Shown here: in pieces, positions 953 through 31,258 of the stretch
How positions within the stretch are numbered: the first letter of the stretch is position 1
How the letters are laid out: the number at the start of each line of letters is the position of its first letter
DNA from: a virus
Lineage: Duplodnaviria > Caudoviricetes
Strand: one strand, 5' to 3'
Virus record (IMG/VR): IMGVR_UViG_3300017821_000121
Span: 1-31,258 of that record
DNA: 31,258 nucleotides
Translations under genes and position numbers: made by a program
The notes under the pieces: generated by a model
The model's input: only the letters and a program-made list of their open reading frames with translations
Told to the model about the DNA's origin: nothing
Databases searched by the model: none

Positions 953-3505
953 ATGAAACGATTTCTCCTTCTCTGTGTTCTCTCTGCTCTCTCTGCCGGA
1001 TCCCTCTTCGCGCAAGTCACCACGGTGACCGGGCAGGTGCTCGACGTGAACGGCATTCCCTACGCCGGCGCGCAGGTCAAGGCGCAGCTCGTCACCACCG
1101 CGGGATCGCCGGTCACCGGCCAACCCACCGTCACCAACAATTCCGCGGCTTCCTGTAAACAAGCTGGCTTTGGCAGCGCGCCGTGCCAGATCCCGTTCCA
1201 GGGAACCTTTGGCCCGACGACGCTGGATAGCGCGGGAAAGATTCCTGCCGGCGGGATCCAGCTTCAGGACAACAGCCAGGTGACGCCGGCGAGCACGCAG
1301 TGGCTTTTCACCGTGAACGAGATCGGCAATCCTCTGCCGCTCGGCACCGGCCCGCAAACCTGCAGCGCGCAGATCACCATCAGCGGCGGCTCACAATCCG
1401 TCAGCTCTAGCTTTTCCGCCTGTCCCGCGCTCAGCAACTCAAATGGCGGCCTCACGCAAGCCGTAGGGCCAGTCATCAACGTCACAGCTTCCCCTTACAG
1501 TGCTTCGGCTTCATTGGCCGATAACGTTACGGCCTTTACTGCCGCTGCAACGGCGGCCAACGCAGCGTCACTTACGGCGGGCAATCCCACCTTTAAGCAG
1601 GCGGCAAATGCAAGTTGCCCGGCAGGTTGTGCCAGTCTGACTCCTACCATTCCGATTCTCCAAGGCGATTCTGTTCTGGTATTTATAATCGGGACCGCCC
1701 TCGGCAGGACAATCACGGTTTCCGACAGCGGAAGCAACGTATACAGCCTTGTCATAGTTCAATCGCTTTCCTCAAACTCAAACGCCAACATCATAGGCTA
1801 TGCCACAGCTCCGAGCGGTGCTGTCCCTGCAACCTCTATAACCGTTGCGGTAAGTGGCGCAAACGAGCAATTCGTGGTGCTGGTGATGACGGCAAGCAAT
1901 GTGGGGTCTTATCGCTTCCCCGTTCCACCCGTTCAGACGGGCACTGTGACTCCAGCAATCACCTCAACAACACTCGATACCAACAACATTTTAGTGGGAG
2001 TATCCGCCTGGTGGAAGGCTGCGGCAGATGCCGCTTCGCAAGCCTCGGGAACTTTGCAAACGACTGTTGCTTCTACGGCCAGCGCAGACGGAGCCTCTCT
2101 TGTTACGCAGGCTTCTGCAACTTCCGCTTCTTTGACTGATAGCGTTACTCTCGCCCTGCTCGCTGAAGCAGTTACGGTCGCGGTTGAACTCCGGAGCCGC
2201 ACCTTCGTGCTACCAACGCTGTACATCCCCTATGGGAACTACAACTATTCGGGGGGCTTGTCGCTGACTCAACCCTCAACATTGCTATGCGAACCCGGAA
2301 CGGTATTGAACTACATCGGGAGCGCCCATGCGGTCGATGTTGGCCCATCCACGCTGACCGTGAACACCCTTGAGGCGGCAACGCCTTACATCATTCAAGG
2401 CTGTCTCTTCACGGGTGGCGGGAAGATGACGCAGGGCATCTTTATTCAGCCTTGGATTTCTTATGTTGGCATCCGCTTTTGCACGTTCCACAATTTCGGG
2501 AATTCCACGGCCTATATGGTCTGGGGACAACTGGACAACTGGGACGTGGAGGTTGGCCCACAGAACCGATTCATCGTGGATGACCTTGTGCCCCGCAACC
2601 TGGTTCGTATGAATGGTGCAGGTGGTGGAGGGGACCAAGACAGTTATTTGCGCTTCCACGACAACATGACGGTTTGTTTTCCAGGGGCAGCCCCCGGCCT
2701 CACGGGGGGCTGTACAGCGGCGCAAACCGGCATCGGAATCTATACGGACGGTTCTCAAAACAGGGTTTACCACAACAACATGGCGCGATTTAATCCCAAT
2801 GTTTTATTGGGATGTTCGGCTCCACCTTGCTATGGAAACGAAGTGGGCTGGAATCAGTTCGAGACTGTTCAAACCGGTGCGGGATTGCCAGCCATCCAAT
2901 TTTCAGGGACTCAGTACGGAATAGTAATACATGAAAATTCCTCCAACCTCCACGGGCTAGCCATGTCCCTAATTGGTCCCGTTGGCGGATCGGACGCGCT
3001 CCAAGGAGCAAGAATAAACTTCAACACGACTGTGGGGATCCTGGCGGCAACTCCCTTGGTCGCATTGAACAATGTCGCCAATCAAACGGGGAACCAGTCC
3101 TCAAACAACCTCTGCGGTACTGCGGTAGCTGCGCTCGCTCCCTGTCCCATACCGCACACGACCGGAAGCAACATCAGTGCTTGGAACTTCAACATTGACG
3201 ATGCGCTGATGAATATCGGATCTCCTCCGACCGTAACTGGAACAGGGGCCTGCGCCACGGTCAGCACGCAAAAGGGCGGGAGCTTGGCTGGCTTGGTGAC
3301 CTGTACGGGCACTACGGGGGCGAGCACGTTGATTATCACCTTTGGGACCACGGCACCTAATGGCTGGAACTGCAGCGGCACGAAGGACGAAACGACTCCG
3401 GCAAACGTCCTGAATCAGACCTCGCACACCGCGACCTCGTGTACGCTGACCGCAAGCAGTATCACAGCCAATGACGTGATTCTTTTATCAGCCCTGGAAT
3501 TTTGA
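953..3505 (+). CDS. Spike/receptor-binding protein 2 with signal peptide and pectin-lyase-like beta-helix (putative depolymerase)
   Basis: GAGGG RBS; MKRFLLL...SLFA|Q signal; INV..PY.A...DN.TAF and TLYIPYGNY beta-helix cap motifs; Asn-rich repeats; Cys-rich C-terminal domain. Confidence 0.75.
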   Translation: MKRFLLLCVLSALSAGSLFAQVTTVTGQVLDVNGIPYAGAQVKAQLVTTAGSPVTGQPTVTNNSAASCKQAGFGSAPCQIPFQGTFGPTTLDSAGKIPAGGIQLQDNSQVTPASTQWLFTVNEIGNPLPLGTGPQTCSAQITISGGSQSVSSSFSACPALSNSNGGLTQAVGPVINVTASPYSASASLADNVTAFTAAATAANAASLTAGNPTFKQAANASCPAGCASLTPTIPILQGDSVLVFIIGTALGRTITVSDSGSNVYSLVIVQSLSSNSNANIIGYATAPSGAVPATSITVAVSGANEQFVVLVMTASNVGSYRFPVPPVQTGTVTPAITSTTLDTNNILVGVSAWWKAAADAASQASGTLQTTVASTASADGASLVTQASATSASLTDSVTLALLAEAVTVAVELRSRTFVLPTLYIPYGNYNYSGGLSLTQPSTLLCEPGTVLNYIGSAHAVDVGPSTLTVNTLEAATPYIIQGCLFTGGGKMTQGIFIQPWISYVGIRFCTFHNFGNSTAYMVWGQLDNWDVEVGPQNRFIVDDLVPRNLVRMNGAGGGGDQDSYLRFHDNMTVCFPGAAPGLTGGCTAAQTGIGIYTDGSQNRVYHNNMARFNPNVLLGCSAPPCYGNEVGWNQFETVQTGAGLPAIQFSGTQYGIVIHENSSNLHGLAMSLIGPVGGSDALQGARINFNTTVGILAATPLVALNNVANQTGNQSSNNLCGTAVAALAPCPIPHTTGSNISAWNFNIDDALMNIGSPPTVTGTGACATVSTQKGGSLAGLVTCTGTTGASTLIITFGTTAPNGWNCSGTKDETTPANVLNQTSHTATSCTLTASSITANDVILLSALEF

Positions 3506-5952: not shown

Positions 5953-6515
5953 CCGACCAGGAGCTGATGCAATCCATCAAGACGAAGTGGGGCGAGCTGC
6001 TGGATACCACGTGCAAAACTTCCAGCGTCCCGCCGGCGTTTCTCGCGGCCTTGATCGCCAACGAATCCGGCGGCAACCCGGACGCCAAACGTTTCGAGCC
6101 CGCGGTGATGACGCAACTTTTCGCGGTGCTGCTGAACCGCAAAGCGGCCTACGGCTCGATCGGCCGCTCGGACATCATCGCCTATGCCGCGCAAGTGGCC
6201 TCCACGCTGAACATGCAGCTCATTGTGGCGCTCGATCAGCTCTCGACGTCGTGGGGCCTGGTGCAAATCATGGGCTACGAAGCGATCAGCTATCGCACCA
6301 ACGGCGTGGCCGCGCTGACGCAACCCACTTCGGAAATGGTGATCGCGCTGCGCATGCTGGCGGCGTTTGCGGCGCACAATTCGCTGTGGCTGGCCAAGGA
6401 TTTTTCCCAGCTCTTCGATTGCTGGAACACCGGCCGGCCGCACTCGCCCACCGCGGATCCCAACTACATTCCCAACGGCCTGCGCCGCATGGAGCTGTAC
6501 CAGGCGCTGCCGTGA
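5949..6515 (+). CDS. Endolysin, lysozyme-like fold (SLT/N-acetylmuramidase type)
   Basis: LAALIANESGG catalytic Glu, RFEP, STSWGLVQIMG, WN.G..Y motifs; ATG at 5949. Confidence 0.85.
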   Translation: MTDQELMQSIKTKWGELLDTTCKTSSVPPAFLAALIANESGGNPDAKRFEPAVMTQLFAVLLNRKAAYGSIGRSDIIAYAAQVASTLNMQLIVALDQLSTSWGLVQIMGYEAISYRTNGVAALTQPTSEMVIALRMLAAFAAHNSLWLAKDFSQLFDCWNTGRPHSPTADPNYIPNGLRRMELYQALP

Positions 6516-8632: not shown

Positions 8633-8763
8633 CTCGCGTGGGACGCAAGAAACACAAACATCGCGCGGCGGACCGGCTGACGGTTTTCTTCGAGCGCGAG
8701 CGGCGAACTTCCAAATGCGTGGAGAGAGTCAGTCACAAATCTAAACGAAGGAGAATTTTTCCG

Positions 8764-9120
8764 ATGGCAAACCCGCAGATTCTATCCAACGCAGCGAAAG
8801 GCTTGGTGCTCGGCATCGTGGAGACGCTGGCTGCGACCGGCCAGGTGTTTCCGTCCGCCGGGCCGTTCAACGTGGCGATCACCGATCCGAACGCCGACGC
8901 CAACGGCCAGAACGGCACCGTAACCGTGGTGCCGGGCACGCCGGATCAGAAGACCCCGACGATCTTCCGGCCAAGCGGCAACGGCAAAACCGGCACGATC
9001 GCGGTGAAGGTGACGGACACCAGCAATAACCTGGTGGGCGAAGCGAGCTTCGATGTGGTGGCGCCGCCTCCGCCGGCCGCACCCGATACGCTCACGGTCA
9101 GCTTCACCCCGGAGCCGTAG
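8764..9120 (+). CDS. Small beta-sandwich (Ig-like) protein; possible upstream start at 8638
   Basis: AAGGAG RBS at 8748-8753; alternating beta pattern, GKTGTIAVKVTD. Confidence 0.7.
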   Translation: MANPQILSNAAKGLVLGIVETLAATGQVFPSAGPFNVAITDPNADANGQNGTVTVVPGTPDQKTPTIFRPSGNGKTGTIAVKVTDTSNNLVGEASFDVVAPPPPAAPDTLTVSFTPEP

Positions 9121-9249
9121 GGGCGCGTCGCCCTTCCGGTTAGGAACTTCCACCTGGCGCGGGCCGTTCCGTCAACGGTTCGCGCTTCCCTCCGGCGCGG
9201 TGGCGTGGTTCCAAGGCACGCCGCCGCGCTTTCCCGCTGTCGAGACACG

Positions 9250-9287
9250 AAGGCCGTCCGCGAAAGCGGGCGGCCTTTGTGGTTTTT
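9250..9287 (+). terminator. Rho-independent terminator at the convergence of the two operons
   Basis: AAGGCCGTCCGC-GAAA-GCGGGCGGCCTT followed by a T-rich tract. Confidence 0.75.
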
Positions 9288-9609
9288 AGAGTGCGCGTTT
9301 TCCCCTACGGCGCGACGTCGGCAGCTCGCCGGCGCCGGCGAGCTCCGGATCCGGAGCTGTAGGGGATTTCCGGGGGGCTTTTCCGAGATAGAACGTGTGC
9401 ACGCGCTTTCCCGATCGCCAGCACAAATACACGTATCCCCGCTTATTTCGCAGGTGCGCTTTGATGTACGGATCCCGCCAAGGATGATCTGCATCGCGCT
9501 CGTGCACGTAGATCTCCGGGGGCGATACCCTACATCTGGCGATCGCCGCGCGCGGTCGTCTTTTGGATCTTTTTGCGGCCGTCAATTTTGTAGGGGAAGA
9601 CTTTTTCAT
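9286..9609 (-). CDS. Basic nucleic-acid-binding protein (DUF6788-like)
   Basis: GYVYLCWRSGKRVHTFYLGK motif; ATG at 9609. Confidence 0.6.
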   Translation of the reverse strand: MKKSSPTKLTAAKRSKRRPRAAIARCRVSPPEIYVHERDADHPWRDPYIKAHLRNKRGYVYLCWRSGKRVHTFYLGKAPRKSPTAPDPELAGAGELPTSRRRGKRAL

Positions 9610-9611
9610 AA

Positions 9612-10055
9612 TCAGATCCGGCACTTCGCCGCCGTGGATCCCCGATAGGCTTCGAGATCGAAATATCGCCAGCCGCGAAAACCTTCGTGGTACAGACGCT
9701 CTTTCATCCGGTGAAACGGTGGCGCACACACAGCCACCCAACGATCCGACTTGATCTGCCACTCGCTGGGCTTTCCGTCCAGCGTGGTGAGCAGCGGAAG
9801 CTGGCCGACGTTCTGCACGATGCAAACCACAGAGAAATTCCCAATCAAAATGCCTCTGTGGGAAAAATAGAGCTGATAGATTCCGCCCCAAGCCGGACAG
9901 CCGAGATAATCCCCGGCGGGCTCCGTCTTGCTCGGCCGGCCGCGGCCGAGGGTGAAAAAGTACATGGTGAAACACGCCTTCTCTTCCGTGCCAAAGAAGC
10001 GATCGAGCTGGCCGCGGGCAAAACGGGTCGGAAGCGTCTTGATGATAGCTCCCAC
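9612..10055 (-). CDS. Hypothetical protein
   Basis: Fills the operon slot between neighbours; protein-like composition. Confidence 0.65.
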   Translation of the reverse strand: MGAIIKTLPTRFARGQLDRFFGTEEKACFTMYFFTLGRGRPSKTEPAGDYLGCPAWGGIYQLYFSHRGILIGNFSVVCIVQNVGQLPLLTTLDGKPSEWQIKSDRWVAVCAPPFHRMKERLYHEGFRGWRYFDLEAYRGSTAAKCRI

Positions 10056-10061
10056 GGCGGT

Positions 10062-10565
10062 TTAGACCCCCTGTTTGGAAGCGGGGCTGGATATGGGGCA
10101 GTCTGTGGAATAGGCAGCAGGTAGGATGCCTGCCAGAGGCATCCAATCCCACAGTTTGCGCTGCCCGCGGACGAATACCGGCTTTTCCAGCCGCTGGACG
10201 TCGCGCAGGATCCATGCCCAGCGTCCGTTGTCGTAATTGCCGAGCTGCAGCTCCACTTCCCAGCCGCGCTTCGGGAAAAAATTTGGTTTCAGCTTTTTCA
10301 CCGCGGTGCCGACAAGCGCCGTGGGCACGCACGCCGCCAAGTGGCACACGGCCACCACCTGGCCCATGTGAAATTCGGGCAGCTCGTGCCCTTTGGAGCC
10401 GAGCAGAAACGTGAGGCGCGAAATTTCCGTCTTGTCCGGCGGATGCACGCTGGAATGAATGGCCAGCGGCCCGCGGTAGCCGGTGTACCAATCGCGCGTT
10501 TCCACTTCCTTCCAGCCGGCGGCAACCAGCGCGGCCCACGGCTCGTGCAGCGTGATGGCTTTCAT
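10062..10565 (-). CDS. ASCH domain protein
   Basis: MKAITLHEPWA..V..G.K.VETR.W.T.YRGPLAIHS; RGQRKLW. Confidence 0.92.
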   Translation of the reverse strand: MKAITLHEPWAALVAAGWKEVETRDWYTGYRGPLAIHSSVHPPDKTEISRLTFLLGSKGHELPEFHMGQVVAVCHLAACVPTALVGTAVKKLKPNFFPKRGWEVELQLGNYDNGRWAWILRDVQRLEKPVFVRGQRKLWDWMPLAGILPAAYSTDCPISSPASKQGV

Positions 10566-10879
10566 GGTTTGCCGCTTTTTCGCGGCCAGCCGATGCAGCC
10601 GCCGCTGGAGTGAAAATGCTTGTGATCGCCGGGGTGATTCGGTTCCAGCGTGCAGAAGTAATCAGCAGGACCGGAATTGTCGCCGCAGATCGACGAGCAG
10701 AGTCTTAATCGGCGACTTTGTTTCGCAATGTCTAACCAGATATAGGCCACAAGAGCCACACAGACGCACCCGATCGTGATTAGATCTTTCCACGTGTGAA
10801 ATCGAACGACGAGTATGGTCGCAGCGGCGACAACAAAGACGGAAAGCATCCAAGCGAAAATGCGATCAAAGCGATCCAT
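10562..10879 (-). CDS. Two-TM protein with C-terminal C..C..H..H motif
   Basis: Hydrophobic helices; ICG...CTLEPNHPGDH. Confidence 0.6.
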   Translation of the reverse strand: MDRFDRIFAWMLSVFVVAAATILVVRFHTWKDLITIGCVCVALVAYIWLDIAKQSRRLRLCSSICGDNSGPADYFCTLEPNHPGDHKHFHSSGGCIGWPRKSGKP

Positions 10880-11100
10880 CACGCGACCCCCGTAGCTTTC
10901 TCGATCAGCCGCAGCAGCGGCGGCCTTGTGCCATTGCGCTGGCGATCGCGGCGCGCCACCAAGCACGGCTCACAGCACACGTGGCGCTTCCCTTTCGCGT
11001 CCACGTGGGCTTTGTTCTTCCGGCAGTCCGGGCAAGTGCCTTTGGCGCGCAGCTCCGCGCGGCGGCGTTTTTGTTCGCGGTTGAATTCCTCGCGCGTCAT
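10879..11100 (-). CDS. Zn-finger basic protein
   Basis: GTCPDC...CEPC; ATGA overlap with DUF5131 gene. Confidence 0.7.
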   Translation of the reverse strand: MTREEFNREQKRRRAELRAKGTCPDCRKNKAHVDAKGKRHVCCEPCLVARRDRQRNGTRPPLLRLIEKATGVA

Positions 11101-12038
11101 GGCTGCACCGCCGCGGGTTTCGGGAATTCGTTCCACTCGCGGCCGTCGAGCAGCCGGCCGGCGCGTTTCTTGCCCACTTTGAAAAAGATCTCTGGACCGT
11201 TGGTACGGCACGGCGTGTCCATCGAAAGCGCTTTGATCTGGTCCACGGTCATGGCGGCTTCGATCTGCGACACGTGGATCCACTCGCCCCACTGTTTGAA
11301 GAAAAACGGCACGCCGCCGCCAACACACTGATCGCGCAGCGAGCGCGCCCAATCCGGATGCATTGGCCGCGCGTTGGGGCCGCTCTCGCCGCCGCACACC
11401 ACCCAATTCATTCGGCTTTCTGGCGTTTCGATATTTGGTGCTAAGAATCCGCGCTCAAACCTTATTCCGCGATCTCCGCACCTGGTGAGGTCCATCGGTC
11501 CAAGCAACGGCTCGGCGGAGATCCAGCGCACCGCCGCCGGCGTGGAAAGCAGCAGCGGGATCCGCTCATCGGCGAAATGCTGGCTTTCCACGCTGACGCC
11601 CAGCCAGACGTTGGGCAGTGGCCACTCTTTGCCCACTTTGCCGCCCAGGAACGGAATGCTCATCAGCGCGTTCATGCGCTCGGCGCGTTTGGTGAGGATC
11701 TGGAACGTGTGTTGCGGGCAGCGCTGCATCACGCTGAACACATCGTGGATCCACGCCCACGGCGTATCGAAGAACAAATCCGCCATGTCGCAGACGAAGA
11801 TTTTGCGCGGCTGGCGCCAGTGCAGCGGCTCGTTCAGGCGCTCCGGGTGGAAGCGCACTTCGCCGGTCCAACGCGTGTTTTCGCTGAACGTCGCCAGACC
11901 ATCGTACTCCGGAAGTTTTCGCAATCGCGTGGCGGCCAGGCGCGCGGCGTAGCAATTCGCGCAGCCGCGCGACACTTCTTTGCACCCGGTGATGGGATTC
12001 CAGGTCGCGTCCGTCCACTCGATCGATGTTTTACCCAC
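11097..12038 (-). CDS. Phage Gp37/Gp68 family protein (DUF5131)
   Basis: TSIEWTDATWNPITGC..VS.GC.NCYA, FQILTKR, NVWLGVSVE, SAEPLL, WVVCGGESG, FFFKQWG. Confidence 0.95.
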   Translation of the reverse strand: MGKTSIEWTDATWNPITGCKEVSRGCANCYAARLAATRLRKLPEYDGLATFSENTRWTGEVRFHPERLNEPLHWRQPRKIFVCDMADLFFDTPWAWIHDVFSVMQRCPQHTFQILTKRAERMNALMSIPFLGGKVGKEWPLPNVWLGVSVESQHFADERIPLLLSTPAAVRWISAEPLLGPMDLTRCGDRGIRFERGFLAPNIETPESRMNWVVCGGESGPNARPMHPDWARSLRDQCVGGGVPFFFKQWGEWIHVSQIEAAMTVDQIKALSMDTPCRTNGPEIFFKVGKKRAGRLLDGREWNEFPKPAAVQP

Positions 12039-12192
12039 GCCGCCTCTCCTTGCCCCGGTAAGCCCGCATGTTCTCGTAAATGTTTAGCGCCTCACTGCAG
12101 CGTTCACAGAGCTGCGCTCCACGGCATTTGCGCACCTTCTGTTTTTTCTTTCGGCAGTTCGAACACGTGCCAATGAATTCGCGGTGACTCAT
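12031..12192 (-). CDS. Small Zn-finger protein, 53 aa (not in ORF track)
   Basis: MSHREFIGTCSNC...LCERC. Confidence 0.6.
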   Translation of the reverse strand: MSHREFIGTCSNCRKKKQKVRKCRGAQLCERCSEALNIYENMRAYRGKERRRG

Positions 12193-12263
12193 GCGCCCCC
12201 TTCACTGCCAGGAAAACCACTTCATCCACAGCCAGCGATCCCGCAGCCAGCGCCAGATCCGCT

Positions 12264-12473
12264 TCATGGCTGGATCCTGGTGACGAAGCGGAGACGCCAG
12301 AGCAGTTCCGCTTCCTCGGCGGTGCAGGAATATTTGGTGCGGTCGATCATCGCGTTCAGCAGCTTCACGGCGTCGCACAGGTTGGCGTACATCTGCAGTT
12401 CGCTGGCGAGTGGCTTCTGGGCAGGGCCAACCGCTTGCTGCTGGATCGGGATTGCGTTGATCGAATGCGTCAT
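12264..12473 (-). CDS. Hypothetical protein
   Basis: ATGA overlap chain in the - strand operon. Confidence 0.55.
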   Translation of the reverse strand: MTHSINAIPIQQQAVGPAQKPLASELQMYANLCDAVKLLNAMIDRTKYSCTAEEAELLWRLRFVTRIQP

Positions 12474-12640
12474 GACTTTCGCCCAAATCTCAGTCGGGCA
12501 ACGTAACCCCCACCTGGAAGAATGAACCGCCAGCGACTTTGTGGGCTTTTATAGCAGTCTGGCCATTTCGTGGTGACGTAGCACCAGACATCGCCGATGA
12601 CAAATCCAGCCAAGCAAAAAGCAAAGAGTACGTTCATCAT
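12470..12640 (-). CDS. Small membrane protein, 56 aa (not in ORF track)
   Basis: MMNVLFAFCLAGFVIG...; ATGA overlaps on both sides. Confidence 0.55.
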   Translation of the reverse strand: MMNVLFAFCLAGFVIGDVWCYVTTKWPDCYKSPQSRWRFILPGGGYVARLRFGRKS

Positions 12641-12864
12641 GATGCGTCACCGTTGCGGAGCGGAAATGCGCCCAACAGTTTGGGCCACCGGCTAACCCGC
12701 TGATTTATGGCCAGCACCGTTCCCGGCGGCGGAGCGTCCACGTATTCCGCGCGCTCCATGCACTTCACCAACGCCTGCACGTTGTCGCAAAATTTTGCGT
12801 AAGCCGGCTCTTTCAAGTACAGCACCTTCCCGCCCGGCACCGGGAGTTTCACCCATCGCGTCAT
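12637..12864 (-). CDS. Hypothetical protein
   Basis: MTRWVKLPVPGG...; ATGA overlaps. Confidence 0.6.
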   Translation of the reverse strand: MTRWVKLPVPGGKVLYLKEPAYAKFCDNVQALVKCMERAEYVDAPPPGTVLAINQRVSRWPKLLGAFPLRNGDAS

Positions 12865-13526
12865 GACTCTTGAAACCTCGCGTCGAAATTGGCGGCGGTA
12901 ACGCGACGGCCGCGATGCGGCTTGATCGCGGGAAGAACACCAGCGCGGCGCGCTTCCCATTCCGCAAATCTGTCGCGAGCCGGCACGGAGCGAGTGGGGT
13001 CCGCGCCGGGCTCGCGCTTTGCCGCGCTGCGGACAACAGTGGGCAAACTTTTTGTGGCCGCGGCGGCGCGCAGCTCGCCGGGCCGGAGTACGCCTGCTGC
13101 GCCAGGGCTTGAGCGGAACTGCGGTCGCACATCCGCCGGCAGGGCATCCACTACTCGGCCGACGGGGCCGAGCTGCTCAAGATCGTTACGCAACTTCACT
13201 TCGGCGGCGTGCAGGCGATCGTCCGCGGCATCCAACGCAAAACGCAGCGTGCGCAGGATCCAGCGCTTTTTAGGATGGAGCGGCGTCTGGGAATCGAACC
13301 CAGCTACGGGGCGCTGGAAACGCGCGTCTTCACCAGAAGAACGCCGCCTCGCTCTCACTTTGGCCAAAACGAAATACACCGGATACCAGGACGCCAGCGC
13401 GGCCATGGAAAACAGCACCGCGTAGAACGTGTGCAGCGATCGGAAAAATGCCACCACGCACGCCGCGCCGATCACCAGCAGAAACGCTTTGGTCGTCCAC
13501 CACGCCGCTTTCAGATCCAGTTTCAT
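12861..13526 (-). CDS. Hypothetical protein with two N-terminal TM helices; contains an embedded tRNA-like sequence
   Basis: AAGGAG RBS; ATGA overlaps at both ends. Confidence 0.55.
   Translation of the reverse strand: MKLDLKAAWWTTKAFLLVIGAACVVAFFRSLHTFYAVLFSMAALASWYPVYFVLAKVRARRRSSGEDARFQRPVAGFDSQTPLHPKKRWILRTLRFALDAADDRLHAAEVKLRNDLEQLGPVGRVVDALPADVRPQFRSSPGAAGVLRPGELRAAAATKSLPTVVRSAAKREPGADPTRSVPARDRFAEWEARRAGVLPAIKPHRGRRVTAANFDARFQES
13276..13347 (-). tRNA. tRNA-Gly(TCC)-like element with shortened D-loop
   Basis: GCGGCGT/ACGCCGC acceptor stem, T73 plus encoded CCA, CTGGG-TTCGATT-CCCAG T-arm, TT-TCC-AG anticodon loop (one C-C mismatch in stem); 72 nt. Confidence 0.75.
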
Positions 13527-13768
13527 AGCTGACGCTCCTTTGCTCTTCTTACGGCTTCCGCGATGAAGCGTTTGTAGGCCAGCATGAATTTGGCGGCGCT
13601 CGCGTCGTCCGGCGGAAACTCATCCGGACAGGCGTAGAAAGTGCGCCCAGCTAACTGGACACAACGCCACTGCGAGGAAACAGTTGGGTCGCTCCGCTGC
13701 TCGCGACCGCAAAGGCAGCACACCATCAGCTCGCCGACAAACGGTATTGGCGCTTCGTTGATCCTCAT
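13523..13768 (-). CDS. Cys-containing hypothetical protein
   Basis: CCLC...YACP; ATGA overlaps. Confidence 0.65.
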   Translation of the reverse strand: MRINEAPIPFVGELMVCCLCGREQRSDPTVSSQWRCVQLAGRTFYACPDEFPPDDASAAKFMLAYKRFIAEAVRRAKERQL

Positions 13769-14178
13769 CGGGAACCTCTGCGGATGGCTTCGTCCACCGC
13801 GTCTTGTGTGTCGCGGCCGCGGCGCACAAAATTCTGAAGAACGCCGTTTTCATCGTTGTGATTCTCGCGTTCGCCTGCAGCGAGAGACTTGCCGTCGAGC
13901 CCAGCGGCGGGCGCCAGGGCCGCGCGGCCGTCGAAGCGATCGAGAAAATCCTCGATGAACCGGCAGTTGTCCGCGCGCAGCGTTTTTCCATCGAGCGCGC
14001 GCTTCAGCGTGTCCCACTTAAACGGCGCTTCCATCACCAGCTTGAGTTCGGGGATGCCCAGCGACGAACGCCCTAAGCGATCCGCCGCGCGCGCGCGGAA
14101 TTCCCGCAAGCGCCGGCGATCGCTGAACGACAACGCGCGCGACGCTCCCCCGGTCTTGTAGACTCGTTTCTTTGGCAT
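13765..14178 (-). CDS. Hypothetical basic protein (possible HTH)
   Basis: GGAGG RBS before MPKKRVYK. Confidence 0.6.
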   Translation of the reverse strand: MPKKRVYKTGGASRALSFSDRRRLREFRARAADRLGRSSLGIPELKLVMEAPFKWDTLKRALDGKTLRADNCRFIEDFLDRFDGRAALAPAAGLDGKSLAAGERENHNDENGVLQNFVRRGRDTQDAVDEAIRRGSR

Positions 14179-14221
14179 CGATCCGCCTCCTGGCAAAGAC
14201 GTGTGGTTCGCAAAACTTTTT

Positions 14222-14479
14222 CTAGCGCCGCTCCCAGAGCACGCGAACGGCGCGATCCACCGCTGCGAGACGTTCCGTCACCGCCTGCAGCCGCGACTCC
14301 ATGCGCACCGAACGCGTCAGCAAACGTTCGTAGAGCGCCAGCAGCTTTTCGCGCCGCGCGACGAGCACGCCGGTCAGCCAGCGCGAGCGCGTTCGGAATG
14401 CCCGGCGGGAAAGCGCCCGCGCCGACAAACGCCGCCGCAACGGGCTGACAAGCACGCGAAGAGTCTTGGTTCTGATCAT
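14222..14479 (-). CDS. Arg-rich coiled-coil protein
   Basis: AAAGGAAG upstream; heptad-like C-terminus. Confidence 0.5.
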   Translation of the reverse strand: MIRTKTLRVLVSPLRRRLSARALSRRAFRTRSRWLTGVLVARREKLLALYERLLTRSVRMESRLQAVTERLAAVDRAVRVLWERR

Positions 14480-14644
14480 GAGAGGACTTCCTTTTCTCTG
14501 CGGAGAAGGGAAACCTGTTCGATGGGACAACTGGCCGAAAAATGGCCGTTGGGCCAGTGGCGCGCGCAACTAATGCTTTGATAACGTGTTTTCAACGATA
14601 GCAGCCACCGCAGGGTTGCCCGGGTCAAGGAGTCCCGAGAACCC

Positions 14645-14971
14645 ATGCGCGCTCCCCTCACGGCGGACGAACGCGAAAGACGTGTGATTGAGTACCTGCT
14701 CACGCTGCACAAAGGGCAGATCGCCGAGTTCCGGCTGACGCGGCTGAACCGCGTGGCGAATTTCCGGAAAGCGCTGATGCAGTTGCTGGAGGAATTTATC
14801 GAGGCGCGCGCCGAAGTGCTGGCCGCGGGCATGGTGATGGAATACGCGCCGCCGCGGCCGGAGCGGCCGAAAAGCGATGTAGCGGAAGGAAGATTGCCGC
14901 CGCCGGAGAGAAAACGGCGCCGCCCGCCCTGGCTTCCGCCCGTGCACAGGCGCGAAAAGTTATCAAGGTAG
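14645..14971 (+). CDS. Hypothetical helical protein
   Basis: AAGGAG upstream; only + strand gene in the early region. Confidence 0.6.
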   Translation: MRAPLTADERERRVIEYLLTLHKGQIAEFRLTRLNRVANFRKALMQLLEEFIEARAEVLAAGMVMEYAPPRPERPKSDVAEGRLPPPERKRRRPPWLPPVHRREKLSR

Positions 14972-15017
14972 ACACTCGCTATACTATGTTTACCAGATAG
15001 AGCACAAAAAAACAGGC

Positions 15018-15434
15018 TCATTGGCTTGTCGTCTGTTGATAGCACTTCCATTGTCCCTCTTCGTTTTGAGCCAGCACTGGATACTCCGGAGGACACGTGA
15101 GCGTGCCGATCCTCGATGCAGCTTGCTGCTGCTGAATTGTTTTTCCGATTTGATTGAGGACGGTGCCGAGCCCCGGACGAACGGCGTTCAACACCGCCAC
15201 GGTGGAATTTGTTGGCGCTGCCTGCTGCTGGGAGTTTGCGATCGCAGCCCAGTGTTCCGCCGCCGCTTTATACTTCGCGCTCTCTGATTCCAGTTCATTG
15301 GCGCGGCCCACTGCTTGAGCCTTCTCCATTGTCAGATTCTGGATCACTGGTCTGACCGATCCGTCGTACCACACGCCGCCTATCAAAAGAACAAGAATCG
15401 CGCCGAGCGCCGCAGACCGCAGGTCTATCTTCAT
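15018..15434 (-). CDS. Membrane-anchored coiled-coil protein
   Basis: N-terminal TM, coiled coil, C-terminal Cys pair; TAATG overlap with repressor. Confidence 0.7.
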   Translation of the reverse strand: MKIDLRSAALGAILVLLIGGVWYDGSVRPVIQNLTMEKAQAVGRANELESESAKYKAAAEHWAAIANSQQQAAPTNSTVAVLNAVRPGLGTVLNQIGKTIQQQQAASRIGTLTCPPEYPVLAQNEEGQWKCYQQTTSQ

Positions 15435-15604
15435 TATCGCTCACCATTCCCTTCCACAGGACCGGCGTTACGCCGCTTCCATTCGTCTTCGAGCAGTAAT
15501 CGCACAAAGTCTGATTTTTCCCGCCGATCATGCGCGGCCATCTCTTCAACCTTCTTCTTCAGTTCTCGTGGAATCGCCACGTTAAGGAAGACTCTGTCTT
15601 TCAT
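15434..15604 (-). CDS. Ribbon-helix-helix (CopG/Arc-like) regulator
   Basis: VFLNVAIPRELKKKVEEMA..DRR.KSDFVRLLLED. Confidence 0.8.
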   Translation of the reverse strand: MKDRVFLNVAIPRELKKKVEEMAAHDRREKSDFVRLLLEDEWKRRNAGPVEGNGER

Positions 15605-15610
15605 ACACAC

Positions 15611-15640
15611 ATTGAAATACAGTATGCCACACTGTGTCAA
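15611..15640 (-). promoter_or_regulatory. Promoter with palindromic operator for the RHH gene
   Basis: TTGACA-18-TTCAAT, 6 nt before ATG; ACAGTATG-C-CACACTGT palindrome at 15619-15635. Confidence 0.5.
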
Positions 15641-15656
15641 TAGGAAAGTTGTACCA

Positions 15657-16123
15657 TGAGACAAGCTTTTCCGACCGCAAAATGCGAAATCCCTATATAA
15701 ACACAGGGTGTCTCATACTGTCTCATGATCCTGTCTCGCGTTCAGGCACACTTTTATTACAAACAAAGGACTTAGAAAATACCTTGTCTCATCGAAAAAT
15801 CCTGAATTTCGACGTATCTCTAAGAGAAAGAAAGAGTTTTTCTTATTTTGTGTCTCAGGGTGGGAGGGGGAGGGTACCCAAAGTTGAGTGTAAGTCACGC
15901 AAAAAAGAACTGGGGGGGGTGGCCTATACGGGGACACTGAGACAAATAGGCGAATAGACGGCGAAAGGTGTATTGAAAACAAAGGAATTAGGTGGCTGTC
16001 TCAAGGTTTTTGTGTAACGGACAACACACTCAAAAAATCGGCTATAACTATAGGCGTACTAATGACTTACGATTTGTCTCAGGGTTTGGGCGATTTTGTC
16101 TCGCGCCCCCCGACCCTGAGACT
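15657..16123. repeat. Iteron-like TGTCTC(A/G) repeat array in AT-rich non-coding DNA; probable replication origin
   Basis: Copies at 15709, 15719, 15732, 15785, 15851, 15997, 16075, 16097; inverted copies at 15657, 15938, 16117. Confidence 0.75.
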
Positions 16124-16404
16124 TATCCCAATTGTTTTCTTCTTAAATTCTCGAATTTCTTAGGCTCTGGTATCCAGAGAATCTGTCCGCCCCTACGCTC
16201 CGCGCTTCGATAAAGCCGCATTCTGAAGTCGGGTTCAAGTTCCCACCATCGTGCACGCCACACGTTAAATCGGTTTGCATGTGTGCGCACGCGACGCACG
16301 TTTAGTAAGAACCATGTCCGCTCGCGGCGATCCCCGCAATTTGACTGTAGCAAGTCTCCACGCTTGGGAATTTCACCGCTCGGGACGTTCATAATGAACG
16401 GCAT
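16123..16404 (-). CDS. Hypothetical Trp/Arg-rich protein
   Basis: Starts 1 nt after the helicase stop. Confidence 0.65.
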   Translation of the reverse strand: MPFIMNVPSGEIPKRGDLLQSNCGDRRERTWFLLNVRRVRTHANRFNVWRARWWELEPDFRMRLYRSAERRGGQILWIPEPKKFENLRRKQLG

Positions 16405-16405
16405 G

Positions 16406-17926
16406 TTACTCTTCGTCGTCGGAGGATGTGTCGGAGGGCAGCTTCTCTTTCCACTCGTGGTGCCAGCGGTAAAGTGTGGGTCGCTTCAGGATCGAGAACG
16501 CGCGAAGCACTTCGGTTGGGGGCGCGCCATTCGAGAACATCTCAAACACGGTTTTCTTCATTGCGCTCATCGCCGGCCTGGTGAGCCACTCCGCGCCGTT
16601 TTCCGGTGAAGTGCAGAGCTGCGCTTCGAAGGGCACGCCCCAATGCGGGTCCCGTAACTCGTGGCGGATCTTCTCCACGTTCAGCACCACGCGCAGCCCT
16701 TGTGAGCGCCGATAGTCGCCTGGGTGGTCCAGCTTGATGTAGGAGTCCAGGATGTGCACCTGCGCCGAGTCGCCAAGGAAATCTCCGCCTTTGCCGGCGT
16801 GCTGCAGAAAGCACACGGTGATGCCGCGCGTGTTCAGATCGATGAACCACTCTTTCAGTTCCGCCACTTGACGCGACTGGTCCTCTTGCGCGGCGCTCCA
16901 AAGCGTCGAGATGTTGTCGAGCACGAGAAATTGGAAACCTTCGCCGGCAATCACTTCTTCGATATGCTTGCGATCTTTCGGTTCTTTGACGCTCGGCCGC
17001 CAGGCGTGCGCGCACCGCGGAGCCCGTGCGATCCGCTTGTAATCTTTGGAGACTGTGGCCAGATCGGAAAAATTCGGCTCCACCTTCATGTGTTTGCCGA
17101 TCAGCTTGAGCCGCTCGCGGATTTTCTCTCCATGCATTTCGCCGTAGAGGTACAGCGTGCGCATTGGACCGTAAACCGGCCAATGTCCGCCCGGTCCTTC
17201 ATGCCCGCCGAACAAACAATCCAAACCGTGCGCGACGCAGAAAGCCATGTAGCTGGCGATCCAGCTCTTTCCCCACCCAGCCCACGAAAAAATCATGAAC
17301 GTGCCGGCGCGCGTCACCAGCGGCTCGATCATCGGATCCGCTTTGGGAAGTTCCAAGGTCAGCAGCTCGCTGTAAGGCACCACCACGATGGGATTCTGCG
17401 TGCTGGAGTTCCCTTCCGTGATTGCCGTGATTGAATTCTTGGCGTTGTCCACGATGGCGTCTGCGCCGGCTTCGGCTTCGAGGGCGCGCATCTGGATGTT
17501 GTGCGTGACGTGGATCAGATTTCGCAGTTTGGCTTTTTCAATGATGATGCCCGCGTAGTGCTTGACGTTCGACACCCGCGGTATGCCATCGATGAGCGAA
17601 GCGAGATAGGGCGCGCCGCCGGCTTCCTGGAGCTTCCCTTCCCCCTGCAGATGTTCCGACAGCGTGACGAGATCGATCCCGCCGATCTCCTCGCCTTTTT
17701 TTGCCACTTCGAGCGTGAGTTTCAGGATTCCAGAAAACACCGCTTTGTGCTGCGGGAGGAAAAAATCGTCAACCTTCAGCGCGCCGGCGATCTCTTTGAT
17801 CGCGGCGTTATTGATCAGCAGCGCGCCTAGAAGACTGCGCTCGGCGTCTAGGTTGGAAGGGAGCCTCGGTAGGATGTCAGCGGGAAGCGGAGTGGTGCGA
17901 TTTCGATGAAAAGGGACTGTTGACAT
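16406..17926 (-). CDS. Replicative helicase: DnaB N-terminal domain + RecA/AAA_25-type ATPase + C-terminal HTH
   Basis: LPSNLDAERSLLGALL, DFF..QH..VF, GG.PYLASL (DnaB-N); SWAGWGKS Walker A, LYLYGEM, LVLDN Walker B, QHAGK; RPTLYRW HTH-like. Confidence 0.85.
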   Translation of the reverse strand: MSTVPFHRNRTTPLPADILPRLPSNLDAERSLLGALLINNAAIKEIAGALKVDDFFLPQHKAVFSGILKLTLEVAKKGEEIGGIDLVTLSEHLQGEGKLQEAGGAPYLASLIDGIPRVSNVKHYAGIIIEKAKLRNLIHVTHNIQMRALEAEAGADAIVDNAKNSITAITEGNSSTQNPIVVVPYSELLTLELPKADPMIEPLVTRAGTFMIFSWAGWGKSWIASYMAFCVAHGLDCLFGGHEGPGGHWPVYGPMRTLYLYGEMHGEKIRERLKLIGKHMKVEPNFSDLATVSKDYKRIARAPRCAHAWRPSVKEPKDRKHIEEVIAGEGFQFLVLDNISTLWSAAQEDQSRQVAELKEWFIDLNTRGITVCFLQHAGKGGDFLGDSAQVHILDSYIKLDHPGDYRRSQGLRVVLNVEKIRHELRDPHWGVPFEAQLCTSPENGAEWLTRPAMSAMKKTVFEMFSNGAPPTEVLRAFSILKRPTLYRWHHEWKEKLPSDTSSDDEE

Positions 17927-28166: not shown

Positions 28167-28293
28167 AGAACTGAGCGGTGCAACGGGCTGAGGCGAAAAA
28201 CCTCAGCCCATCCCAATGCGTGGGGCCCCAAGTCTTCGGAAAGAAGAGCTTGGGGGTGGAGAAGTAAAAATTTTCGAAGGAGAAGCTAACGAA

Positions 28294-29058
28294 ATGGAAA
28301 ACCGCACTCGCGCATTTCTCAGCCGTATGTGGCGCAAAGGCGGCGGCGTTTCCGAGCACACGCATGGCGTGGAGAAAATCCAGCTCAGCGAACTCGGCCG
28401 GCCGCACGCGCGCCTCGGCAATCCCAACACCGGCGTCCCTGAAGTGCTTGTCCAGGATGTGTACGACATTTTCTTCGCCGCCGCCGGTAGCGCCTTAACG
28501 AAGTTGACGCTGTTCACCCAGCCGCTCGGCTCGATCTACAACTTCATGGGCGTCACCGCCTTCGCCAAGGGCCTGAACCACACGCTGCTGACGCAGCCCG
28601 GCATGCTGGACTCTTCGTTCAGCTACGTGGTGCGCGCCGTCTCCGTGTACGTGCAGGCGCTGCAGGGCTCCACGCACCCCAACCTGCATCCGGAAGATCT
28701 GAACAATTTCCTCAGCACCTATGCGGAGTTGCAGATCAACCGCAAGCCCTGGCTGCAGGGCAACCTCGGCTGGTATCCCGGCGCAGGCGGCCCGGTGTTC
28801 AGCGGCTTCGGCTCGCTGACCGCGCCGGTTTCGGCGTTTTCCAGTTCCAACGGTGTGGCGTACCGCAATAACGCGTACGCGCTGCCCGGCGGGATCTTCA
28901 TCAACCCGCAGGAAAACTTCAACGTGGTCATCGACCCCACGCAAAACGCTGGCGGCGCGCCATCCATGCTCGCCGCGGCCGGCAACCCCACGGGCGTTGG
29001 GGCATCCGGGCTTTCCGCCTGGTGGCGTTTCATGGGGCAGCTCGTCAGAGTCGCTTAG
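28294..29058 (+). CDS. Probable major capsid protein, single jelly-roll type
   Basis: AAGGAG RBS; beta-strand pattern (VYD, LTLFTQP, YVVRAVSVYV, IFINPQENFNVVI, terminal WRFMG..R); flanking stem-loops; fold inferred by eye. Confidence 0.6.
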   Translation: MENRTRAFLSRMWRKGGGVSEHTHGVEKIQLSELGRPHARLGNPNTGVPEVLVQDVYDIFFAAAGSALTKLTLFTQPLGSIYNFMGVTAFAKGLNHTLLTQPGMLDSSFSYVVRAVSVYVQALQGSTHPNLHPEDLNNFLSTYAELQINRKPWLQGNLGWYPGAGGPVFSGFGSLTAPVSAFSSSNGVAYRNNAYALPGGIFINPQENFNVVIDPTQNAGGAPSMLAAAGNPTGVGASGLSAWWRFMGQLVRVA

Positions 29059-31053: not shown

Positions 31054-31258
31054 ATGGAAATTCGAAACTGGAAATTGGTGGCGGCGCTCTCCCTGTTTTC
31101 GATTTTCTATTTTCCAATTTCCACGAGCGCGCAGATTACCACCGTCACCGGCCAAGTGCTCGACGTGAACGGCATTCCGTACGCCGGCGCGCAGCTCAAG
31201 GCGCAGCTCGTCACCACCGCGGGATCGCCGGTCACCGGCCAACCCACCATCACCAACA
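31054..31258 (+). CDS. Spike/receptor-binding protein 1, 5' part (truncated by contig end)
   Basis: GGAGG RBS; MEIRNWKLVAALSLFSIFYFPISTSA|QITTVTGQVLDVNG... Confidence 0.85.
   Translation, partial: MEIRNWKLVAALSLFSIFYFPISTSAQITTVTGQVLDVNGIPYAGAQLKAQLVTTAGSPVTGQPTITN
31128..31258 (+). repeat. Near-identical direct repeat of 1009-1139
   Basis: Direct alignment at offset 30119. Confidence 0.9.

Follow-up and report, generated by a model that had tools for sequence, protein, structure and literature searches.

Why does a tRNA-like cloverleaf lie on the sense strand of a protein-coding gene in a phage? The question is raised by a virus record of 31,258 bases, estimated to be 98% complete, which was analyzed as a whole and is referred to as the window. 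The original prediction placed a tRNA-Gly(TCC)-like cloverleaf at 13276..13347 on the sense strand of ORF 12861-13526, in frame and between the transmembrane (TM) and helical parts of the encoded protein. ARAGORN agrees: a tRNA-Gly(TCC) at 13276-13347 (minus strand, score 103.1) is its sole tRNA call in the window. A separately assembled contig from run X1, which may be the source sample, spans the element with 0 differing letters. Among sequencing runs, the best one to contain the stretch is a wetland metagenome, possibly its source. At about an even balance of probability, the element is best explained as a conserved, non-canonical glycine-tRNA-like RNA nested in an early gene, which would be excised by RNase P and charged or bound by GlyRS, and which would act as a mimic rather than as an ordinary decoding tRNA. 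At the level of sequence, this explanation draws on the structure, its recurrence at two positions and in two frames, covariation, the glycine identity set, the open frame and neighboring cassettes, all of which the analysis establishes. The features discussed first are these:

12861..13526, minus strand: carrier ORF, P0001, 221 aa (family search, dN/dS, structure model).
13350..13526, minus strand: N-terminal two-helix hydrophobic part of P0001, residues 1-59 (dN 0.13, dS 0.53 versus the homologous locus L002).
13276..13347, minus strand: tRNA-Gly(UCC)-like element, 72 nt, non-canonical, in frame at codons 59-84 (ARAGORN, fold, and a copy in locus L007 with compensatory changes).
13341..13347, minus strand: 5' strand of the acceptor stem, pairing with 13280-13286 (7/7 Watson-Crick in both copies, 2 compensatory).
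13328..13339, minus strand: short D-arm with a 4-bp stem, a 4-nt loop keeping GG, and 1 base between acceptor and D-stem (fold, L007 alignment).
13307..13326, minus strand: imperfect anticodon arm, with TCC at 13316-13318 in a U-UCC-A motif (motif in both copies).
13287..13303, minus strand: canonical T-arm (5/5 pairs in both copies, 3 compensatory).
13276-13279, minus strand: discriminator U and encoded CCA, the UCCA end of the element.

The cloverleaf in the window is not a product of chance. Every part of the predicted fold was recovered: the 7-bp acceptor stem and 5-bp T-stem are entirely Watson-Crick, the T-loop is TTCGATT, the 4-nt D-loop is UGGU, the anticodon is TCC, the end is UCCA, and the one predicted anticodon-stem mismatch is a C-C mismatch in a 5-bp register. 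The fold has a z-score of -2.73, equaled by 1 of 200 shuffles. In simulations, ARAGORN made 3 calls per 300 windows with either of two Markov models; a perfect T-arm arose 187 times in 200 Mb of simulated DNA (approximately 3,199 window-equivalents), 5 times together with CCA and 0 times together with a perfect acceptor. Further ARAGORN calls at relaxed thresholds were mostly noise. A search with Rfam RF00005, whose cut-off is 29 bits, left the window element unreported (0/1), and the top Rfam match of the element was tRNA-Sec at 28.3 bits. A tRNA-Sec (RF01852) identity was rejected: this family is marked by a long acceptor, a 6-bp D-stem, a long variable arm, a UCA anticodon and a cut-off of 47 bits, and the element has no variable arm.

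A second DNA copy came from an RF00005 search of 20 whole related viral records, as a sub-threshold match of 22.9 bits in G002 (L007:937-1008). The helicase of G002 is 62% identical to that of the window and its candidate capsid protein 33% identical. The L007 copy lies in the variable middle of the homologous gene, directly before a conserved FEEWEARR block, and begins at codon position 2, whereas the window element begins at codon position 3. Each copy is 72 nt long, and they align without gaps with 38/72 positions identical. Seven of 21 pairs are compensatory between the two (2 in the acceptor, 1 in the D-stem, 1 in the anticodon stem, 3 in the T-stem); the L007 D-arm keeps the same register, with its one compensatory pair and one mismatch. 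Across both copies 90.5% of cells are paired, compared to 40-60% in slid controls, and 5 of 500 shuffles reach 90.5%. The acceptor and T-stem are 100% paired, whereas the anticodon stem is paired in 67-70% of cells in either register. Both copies keep G1-C72, C2-G71, G3-C70, U73, the GG of the D-loop, and U-UCC-A, the last despite an anticodon loop of 7 nt in the window and 8 nt in L007. The encoded peptides share nothing, indicating that RNA shape is what is conserved. The sequences thus provide strong evidence that stem pairing is conserved across the two copies, although covariation drawn from two DNA rows is weaker than that from a large set at excluding shared ancestry. Of the two marks of a real element named in the original prediction, conserved pairing is present, whereas the RF00005 score is below the cut-off in both copies.

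The element shares with canonical bacterial tRNA-Gly the 7-bp acceptor, the 5-bp T-stem with a TTCRA loop, and the NCCA end. The bacterial glycine identity set given in the available portion of PMC9976931 (G1-C72, C2-G71, G3-C70, U73, C35 and C36) is complete in the window element and in the L007 copy, bearing out the expectation that GlyRS identity elements of tRNA-Gly(UCC) are retained. The element departs from canonical tRNA-Gly, which has two linker bases, A14, a purine at 15 and a regular 5-bp anticodon stem, none of which it has; it also lacks A21. A canonical tRNA-Gly reaches at least 29 bits with RF00005, unlike either copy, and an ordinary tRNA-Gly is not a 72-nt RNA with a 4-nt D-loop read in frame inside a gene. 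An alternative anticodon register (stem 22-41 to 27-36, 6 bp, 3-nt variable loop) fits the window element at least as well as the 5-bp register. In the alternative register 8/22 pairs are compensatory, including two covarying pairs at the foot of the stem, and 67% of cells are paired: 3/6 pairs in the window (a broken stem with a 7-nt loop) and 5/6 in L007 (an 8-nt loop).

This build, common to both copies and unremarked in the original prediction, has natural parallels. As described in the accessible part of PMC7609411, tRNA-Pyl and mt-tRNA-Ser(UCN) have one linker base, a small D-loop, a 6-bp anticodon stem and a 3-nt variable arm; in the tRNA-Pyl of M. alvus the D-loop measures 4 nt and the 6-bp anticodon stem is broken, and mammalian mt-tRNA-Ser(UCN) keeps GG and the T-loop. 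To the extent of that description, the element is like tRNA-Pyl and type I mt-tRNA in its single linker base and shortened D-loop, like M. alvus tRNA-Pyl in its 4-nt D-loop and, in the alternative register, its broken anticodon stem, and like mt-tRNA-Ser(UCN) in retaining GG and the T-loop. The element resembles these RNAs in build and is not a member of the tRNA-Pyl group, because its anticodon and discriminator are those of glycine (PMC9976931, in part): tRNA-Pyl has CUA and G73, whereas the element has UCC, U73 and glycine identity, and is phage-borne and nested in a gene. No PylRS was seen among the ORFs scanned. An identical short D-arm in two diverged copies would be hard to reach by decay, and this arm and the Pyl-like build argue against a decaying tRNA. 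Canonical phage tRNAs have a stop at nt 8-10 in 10/15 cases and are stop-free in the frame of the element in only 2/15, whereas both copies are open; the short D-arm removes the in-frame stop.

Alternatively, the element could be a genuine translating tRNA-Gly(UCC), unusual in its build, that supplements or replaces a host tRNA-Gly after a defense system has cut or modified it, its nesting in a gene only saving space. The full glycine identity set, with U33 and A37, in both copies is what such a tRNA would have, and tRNA-Pyl and mt-tRNA-Ser(UCN) translate with a similar build (PMC7609411, in part). Among the counted genes, 95 of the 556 Gly codons are GGA, and relatives carry an intergenic tRNA-Met. 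However, the anticodon stem is the least paired arm, L007 folds best with an 8-nt loop, A14, purine 15 and A21 are missing, and shorter forms of the element (below) keep the T-arm and the end but not the 72-nt spacing. A mimic is preferred to a decoding tRNA, since the bases read by GlyRS are kept, whereas the anticodon stem is the arm kept least and shorter forms occur. A translating tRNA is therefore an unlikely, if serious, alternative.

The virus that carries the element is sparsely annotated. A Pfam and PHROGs scan of 37 ORFs assigned only DUF5131, ASCH, a DnaB/AAA_25 helicase, a transglutaminase-like protein, a transglycosylase and, weakly, a spanin. ORF 28216-29058 is a candidate major capsid protein, without a Pfam family and conserved in 5/5 relatives tested; it has viral look-alikes at 0.98-0.99 and matches the PM2 P2 and PRD1 P3 capsid families at 0.76-0.77. 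Since the latter matches are weak and below the bar of the tool, a non-tailed phage of the double-jelly-roll type is no more than a lead. The N-terminal module of an 850-aa gene is repeated at the ends of the record (1-941, 953-3505, 31170-31258); two fiber-like genes therefore share a repeated block, and the first ORF crosses the ends of the record. A perfect hairpin is present at 1-60. No sigma-70-like promoter was found in 9000-16500.

The carrier ORF overlaps each neighbor through ATGA and is preceded by GGAG at 13535-13538. P0001 has no Pfam or PHROG family and consists, in order, of a TM hairpin, a linker (the element), a conserved helix, a variable cassette zone and a conserved C-terminal block. 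On the sense strand, the element separates two hydrophobic helices from a soluble one, as predicted. The structure model has helices at residues 5-31, 33-65 and 85-118, with 66-84 at low confidence; only local features of this model count, because it derives from 7 sequences with a pTM of 0.23. The stretch 66-84, where the element falls, is likely disordered. The closest gene homolog, P0002 in L002, is syntenic with the window and has the same TM and soluble fusion without the tRNA element. When the two are compared, each part of the ORF that flanks the linker shows purifying selection, in a single frame (dN/dS 0.13/0.53 over 58 codons in the N-part and 0.20/0.58 over 76 codons in the C-part). 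The linker of L002 is longer than that of the window, unalignable with it, and unstructured (z -1.46 and +0.26); descent of this linker from the element was rejected, as its alignment does not exceed that of shuffles (p 0.52 local, 0.76 global). In the window, the CCA end continues into CAT-CCT-AAA (13269-13277), and the Pro-Lys following CCA, common to L002, is the point where homology between the two resumes.

The family to which the soluble part belongs comprises at least 139 protein clusters. Among the matches listed (120 of the 139 clusters), the TM part occurs only in P0001 and P0002, and the soluble part is a stand-alone gene in most homologs. A word search found no stand-alone TM homolog; a profile-free HMMER scan then revealed a further fused form, P0122/P0124, and a stand-alone TM protein, P0123, of 66 aa. 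The linker of P0122 is unrelated to that of the window. Since L002 and P0122/P0124 are fused without the tRNA, the fusion is independent of it; with stems that are intact and covarying, this speaks against the proposal of two genes fused across a decaying tRNA. The proposal of dual coding, by comparison, is strengthened by a further in-frame copy, with compensatory changes, that occupies a different position and frame in a gene of this family, and by selection on the flanks. It had been argued that separate flanking genes in homologs would break dual coding. The soluble part is indeed often stand-alone, yet dual coding is unbroken because the L007 element sits in the middle of such a gene. No relative turned up in viral contigs when P0001, P0002 and the TM alignment served as queries, the family gene was absent from the GTDB genomes searched, and the ESM Atlas gave no usable match to P0001.

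The middle region of the family gene is hypervariable and assembled from recurring modules. Its folding reaches z <= -2.2 in 5/8 genes and is not better than z -2 in the other 3/8 (60 shuffles each). Rfam at E <= 1 matched 0 families in the 8 family-gene loci. The middles of two of these genes (L006:10000-10350 and L008:10000-10410) have z-scores of -6.4 and -4.5 and multi-branch folds without an Rfam match. DMLHQ/DMPHR modules recur in the family middle and encode an ACCA end in L007.

The element itself is rare. It is present in two of ten gene copies for which DNA was at hand (the window, L002 and those in 8 of 50 records), and a model of it, R1, found it in 1 of 33 viral records. R1 gave no other strong match in 82 sources (1.13 Mb) or the 33 records, and neither set contains a second copy or an intergenic one; its best non-self match is a phage tRNA-Gly(TCC) at 39 bits, at a locus chosen by BLAST likeness and thus not a blind control. 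As an exact or gapped DNA pattern the element had no match in viral contigs or GTDB genomes, BLAST against phage and plasmid records returned only short, chance-level pieces, and the G003 and G004 gene copies have no T-loop within the gene. Protein footprints, which report compatibility of a peptide with the element and not DNA, may extend this distribution. P0028 fits 37/38 invariant positions and 20/22 pairs in the L007 frame, compared to at most 30/38 for 248 shuffled proteins and 32 and 31 for the next real proteins. Compatibility with the T-arm and CCGC-UCCA is found in 7/124 family proteins, including that of the window, versus 1/2,480 shuffles; P0103, P0109, P0117 and P0118 correspond to the shorter forms (53 or 68 nt) and P0027 to 70 nt. 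A T-loop-type peptide occurs in 12/123 family proteins, a count with no control. In P0008, P0018, P0034, P0037 and P0060, likewise seen as proteins only, such peptides do not fit the glycine template and are possibly footprints of other tRNA-like cassettes.

Other tRNA-like sequences were seen in related viruses. The more distant loci L020/L021 (4254-4351) have an ARAGORN call of 111 with a two-base anticodon. L005:16472-16546(-) and L007:10799-10873(-) are intergenic tRNAs with a CAT anticodon, directly after the homolog of gene 8638-9120; the L005 tRNA has an odd D-arm and scores 38.6 bits. At the corresponding place the window (9121-9285) has strong hairpins only. Kinship of the element with the L005 tRNA-Met was rejected: it ranked first of 22 tRNAs (59.5 vs 45.5), but L005 gives 50-56 against unrelated tRNAs.

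Structured DNA read as a floppy peptide at tolerant sites is known from in-frame palindromic elements, the Rickettsia RPE and intragenic REPs. The element would likewise be structured DNA translated as a floppy peptide at a tolerant site. RPE and REP have dispersed copies in unrelated genes, whereas the element has no repeats in the window or the 82 sources and is restricted to one gene family; unlike them, it has a tRNA fold with synthetase identity.

The element could also be a passenger, a tRNA-like RNA with a function elsewhere, now or once, that was shuffled into tolerant loops or swallowed by read-through at a gene fusion, its place being unselected. Its patchy presence (2/10), the unrelated linkers in L002 and P0122, and the existence of stand-alone TM and soluble genes are consistent with such an origin. 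So are the linker codons, which are poorly adapted in both the window and L002 (lowest 1.6% and 0% of 427 windows), which resembles the reading through of what was once spacer DNA and speaks against a fully settled single gene. In L002, GGAGG lies 8 nt 5' of a CTG at the beginning of the soluble part, a possible separate start. However, every copy found is in one gene family and none is intergenic in the 82 sources or 33 records, the stems are intact despite 47% sequence divergence, and a canonical intergenic tRNA would usually close the frame of the element. We consider a passenger doubtful, and a glycine-tRNA-like RNA kept in this gene remains the favored explanation.

The same ORF contains a second RNA cassette, absent from the original prediction, with a corresponding site in the gene upstream:

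12974..13047, minus strand: second RNA cassette, two hairpins common to L002 and L009, with the first loop at 13029-13037.
13966..13974, minus strand: nine-base site complementary to the cassette loop, inside the upstream gene 13765-14178.

The loop and site are at 6391-6399 and 5562-5570 in L002 and at 13708-13716 and 13084-13092 in L009. Complementarity is 9/9 in the window, 9/9 in L002 and 8/9 in L009. In each phage no other of the 3,962 upstream sites does as well, and cross pairs between phages score 6-8, the window loop scoring 8 on both foreign sites. Loop and site covary across the three phages, like an antisense immunity RNA. The stem of the first cassette hairpin is invariant and so yields no covariation. 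A 9-mer complement within 4 kb arises for 9-15% of shuffled loops, and the homologous position of the site therefore carries the weight. A general loop-target rule for all cassettes was rejected as weak (4/25 loops in 8 genes at p <= 0.03); the fixed-window test of these 25 loops missed the L009 site. For the loops of the element itself, no complementary site is found at a homologous place in the window and L007, and the second cassette matched no curated Rfam family.

In phage P4, CI lies within orf199/eta; no paper with the term P4 orf199 was found in the literature. According to the available text of PMC4825925, P4 CI RNA matures from a primary transcript and base-pairs with seqA and seqC, sites in its own transcript, and in Gifsy-1 isrK-orf45-anrP with STnc1160, orf45 is translated, overlaps the next gene through AUGA, varies in its amino acids, and gives rise to a processed small RNA. 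P4 CI and P1-P7 C4 RNAs, without a T-loop, are suggested RNase P substrates (PMC5499578, in part). Like P4 CI, the second cassette has a hairpin loop complementary to a site upstream on the same strand (3/3 phages with the cassette). As far as those sources describe them, CI, C4 and the orf45 product are small RNAs processed out of an early phage transcript, and the second cassette with its upstream complement resembles them. The nested element differs from the CI/C4 hairpins so described in having a full T-arm, an anticodon and glycine identity.

The element might instead act only in cis, as an RNase P signal or as a folded spacer on which mRNA stability and the release of the antisense-like cassette depend; glycine identity would then be a leftover of its origin. 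The acceptor and T-arm are its best-kept parts, in the window the CI-like hairpin follows 230 nt further downstream, and in L007 another cassette, ending in ACCA, is directly upstream of the element. Yet RNase P has no need of U-UCC-A, which is kept in two DNA copies and fits P0028, though adjacent bases vary, and L002 and L009 keep the hairpin cassette without the tRNA-like element. A purely cis function is thus improbable. An attachment site or a chance fold, for which the sub-threshold Rfam score might speak, is scarcely credible, as chance is excluded by simulation, both halves are present and covary, no integrase was found among the 37 ORFs scanned with Pfam and PHROGs, and the pattern from D-arm to T-arm is unmatched in GTDB genomes.

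If the element is a glycine-tRNA mimic, the disordered stretches of the carrier gene would house small RNAs. Host RNase P would cut at the first G (13347), the 5' end of the acceptor stem, 3' trimming would halt at the encoded CCA, and GlyRS would bind or charge the released 72-nt product. Bacterial RNase P acts on minimal substrates and on phage non-tRNA substrates (PMC5499578, in part). Each cut would cost one full-length message, setting RNA output against protein output, and would also cost the translationally coupled downstream genes; in the window phage it would free a downstream piece with the antisense-like hairpin. During infection the released mimic may act either as a substrate of GlyRS or as a decoy for glycine tRNA. 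The decoy function is plausible because TacT selects tRNA-Gly through U73 and G71 (PMC9976931, in part). It is tempting, if distinctly more tentative, to view the whole gene as a modular small-RNA cassette gene with swappable RNase P substrates, including compact Pyl-shaped glycine tRNA mimics (72-nt and shorter) and antisense hairpins, that releases anti-defense decoys and times early genes.

Compact tRNAs are already known, as are small RNAs that are processed out of translated ORFs of phages. No description of a tRNA nested in a phage coding sequence was found in the literature, mostly open-access papers, and the combination of both with glycine identity in a cassette-bearing gene appears to be new. 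The element suggests a class of tRNA-like RNAs in phages that escape standard annotation on two counts, since they fall below the Rfam tRNA cut-off and lie inside called genes. The variable middles of at least 139 protein clusters are a minable source of further RNAs. As a 72-nt glycine acceptor built much like tRNA-Pyl, the element would, if it is charged, offer a natural probe of the minimal core for bacterial GlyRS, RNase P and EF-Tu. With a tRNA mimic in a translated message, one could ask directly whether phages exploit the tRNA processing of their host for early-gene timing or for decoys against tRNA-targeting defenses.
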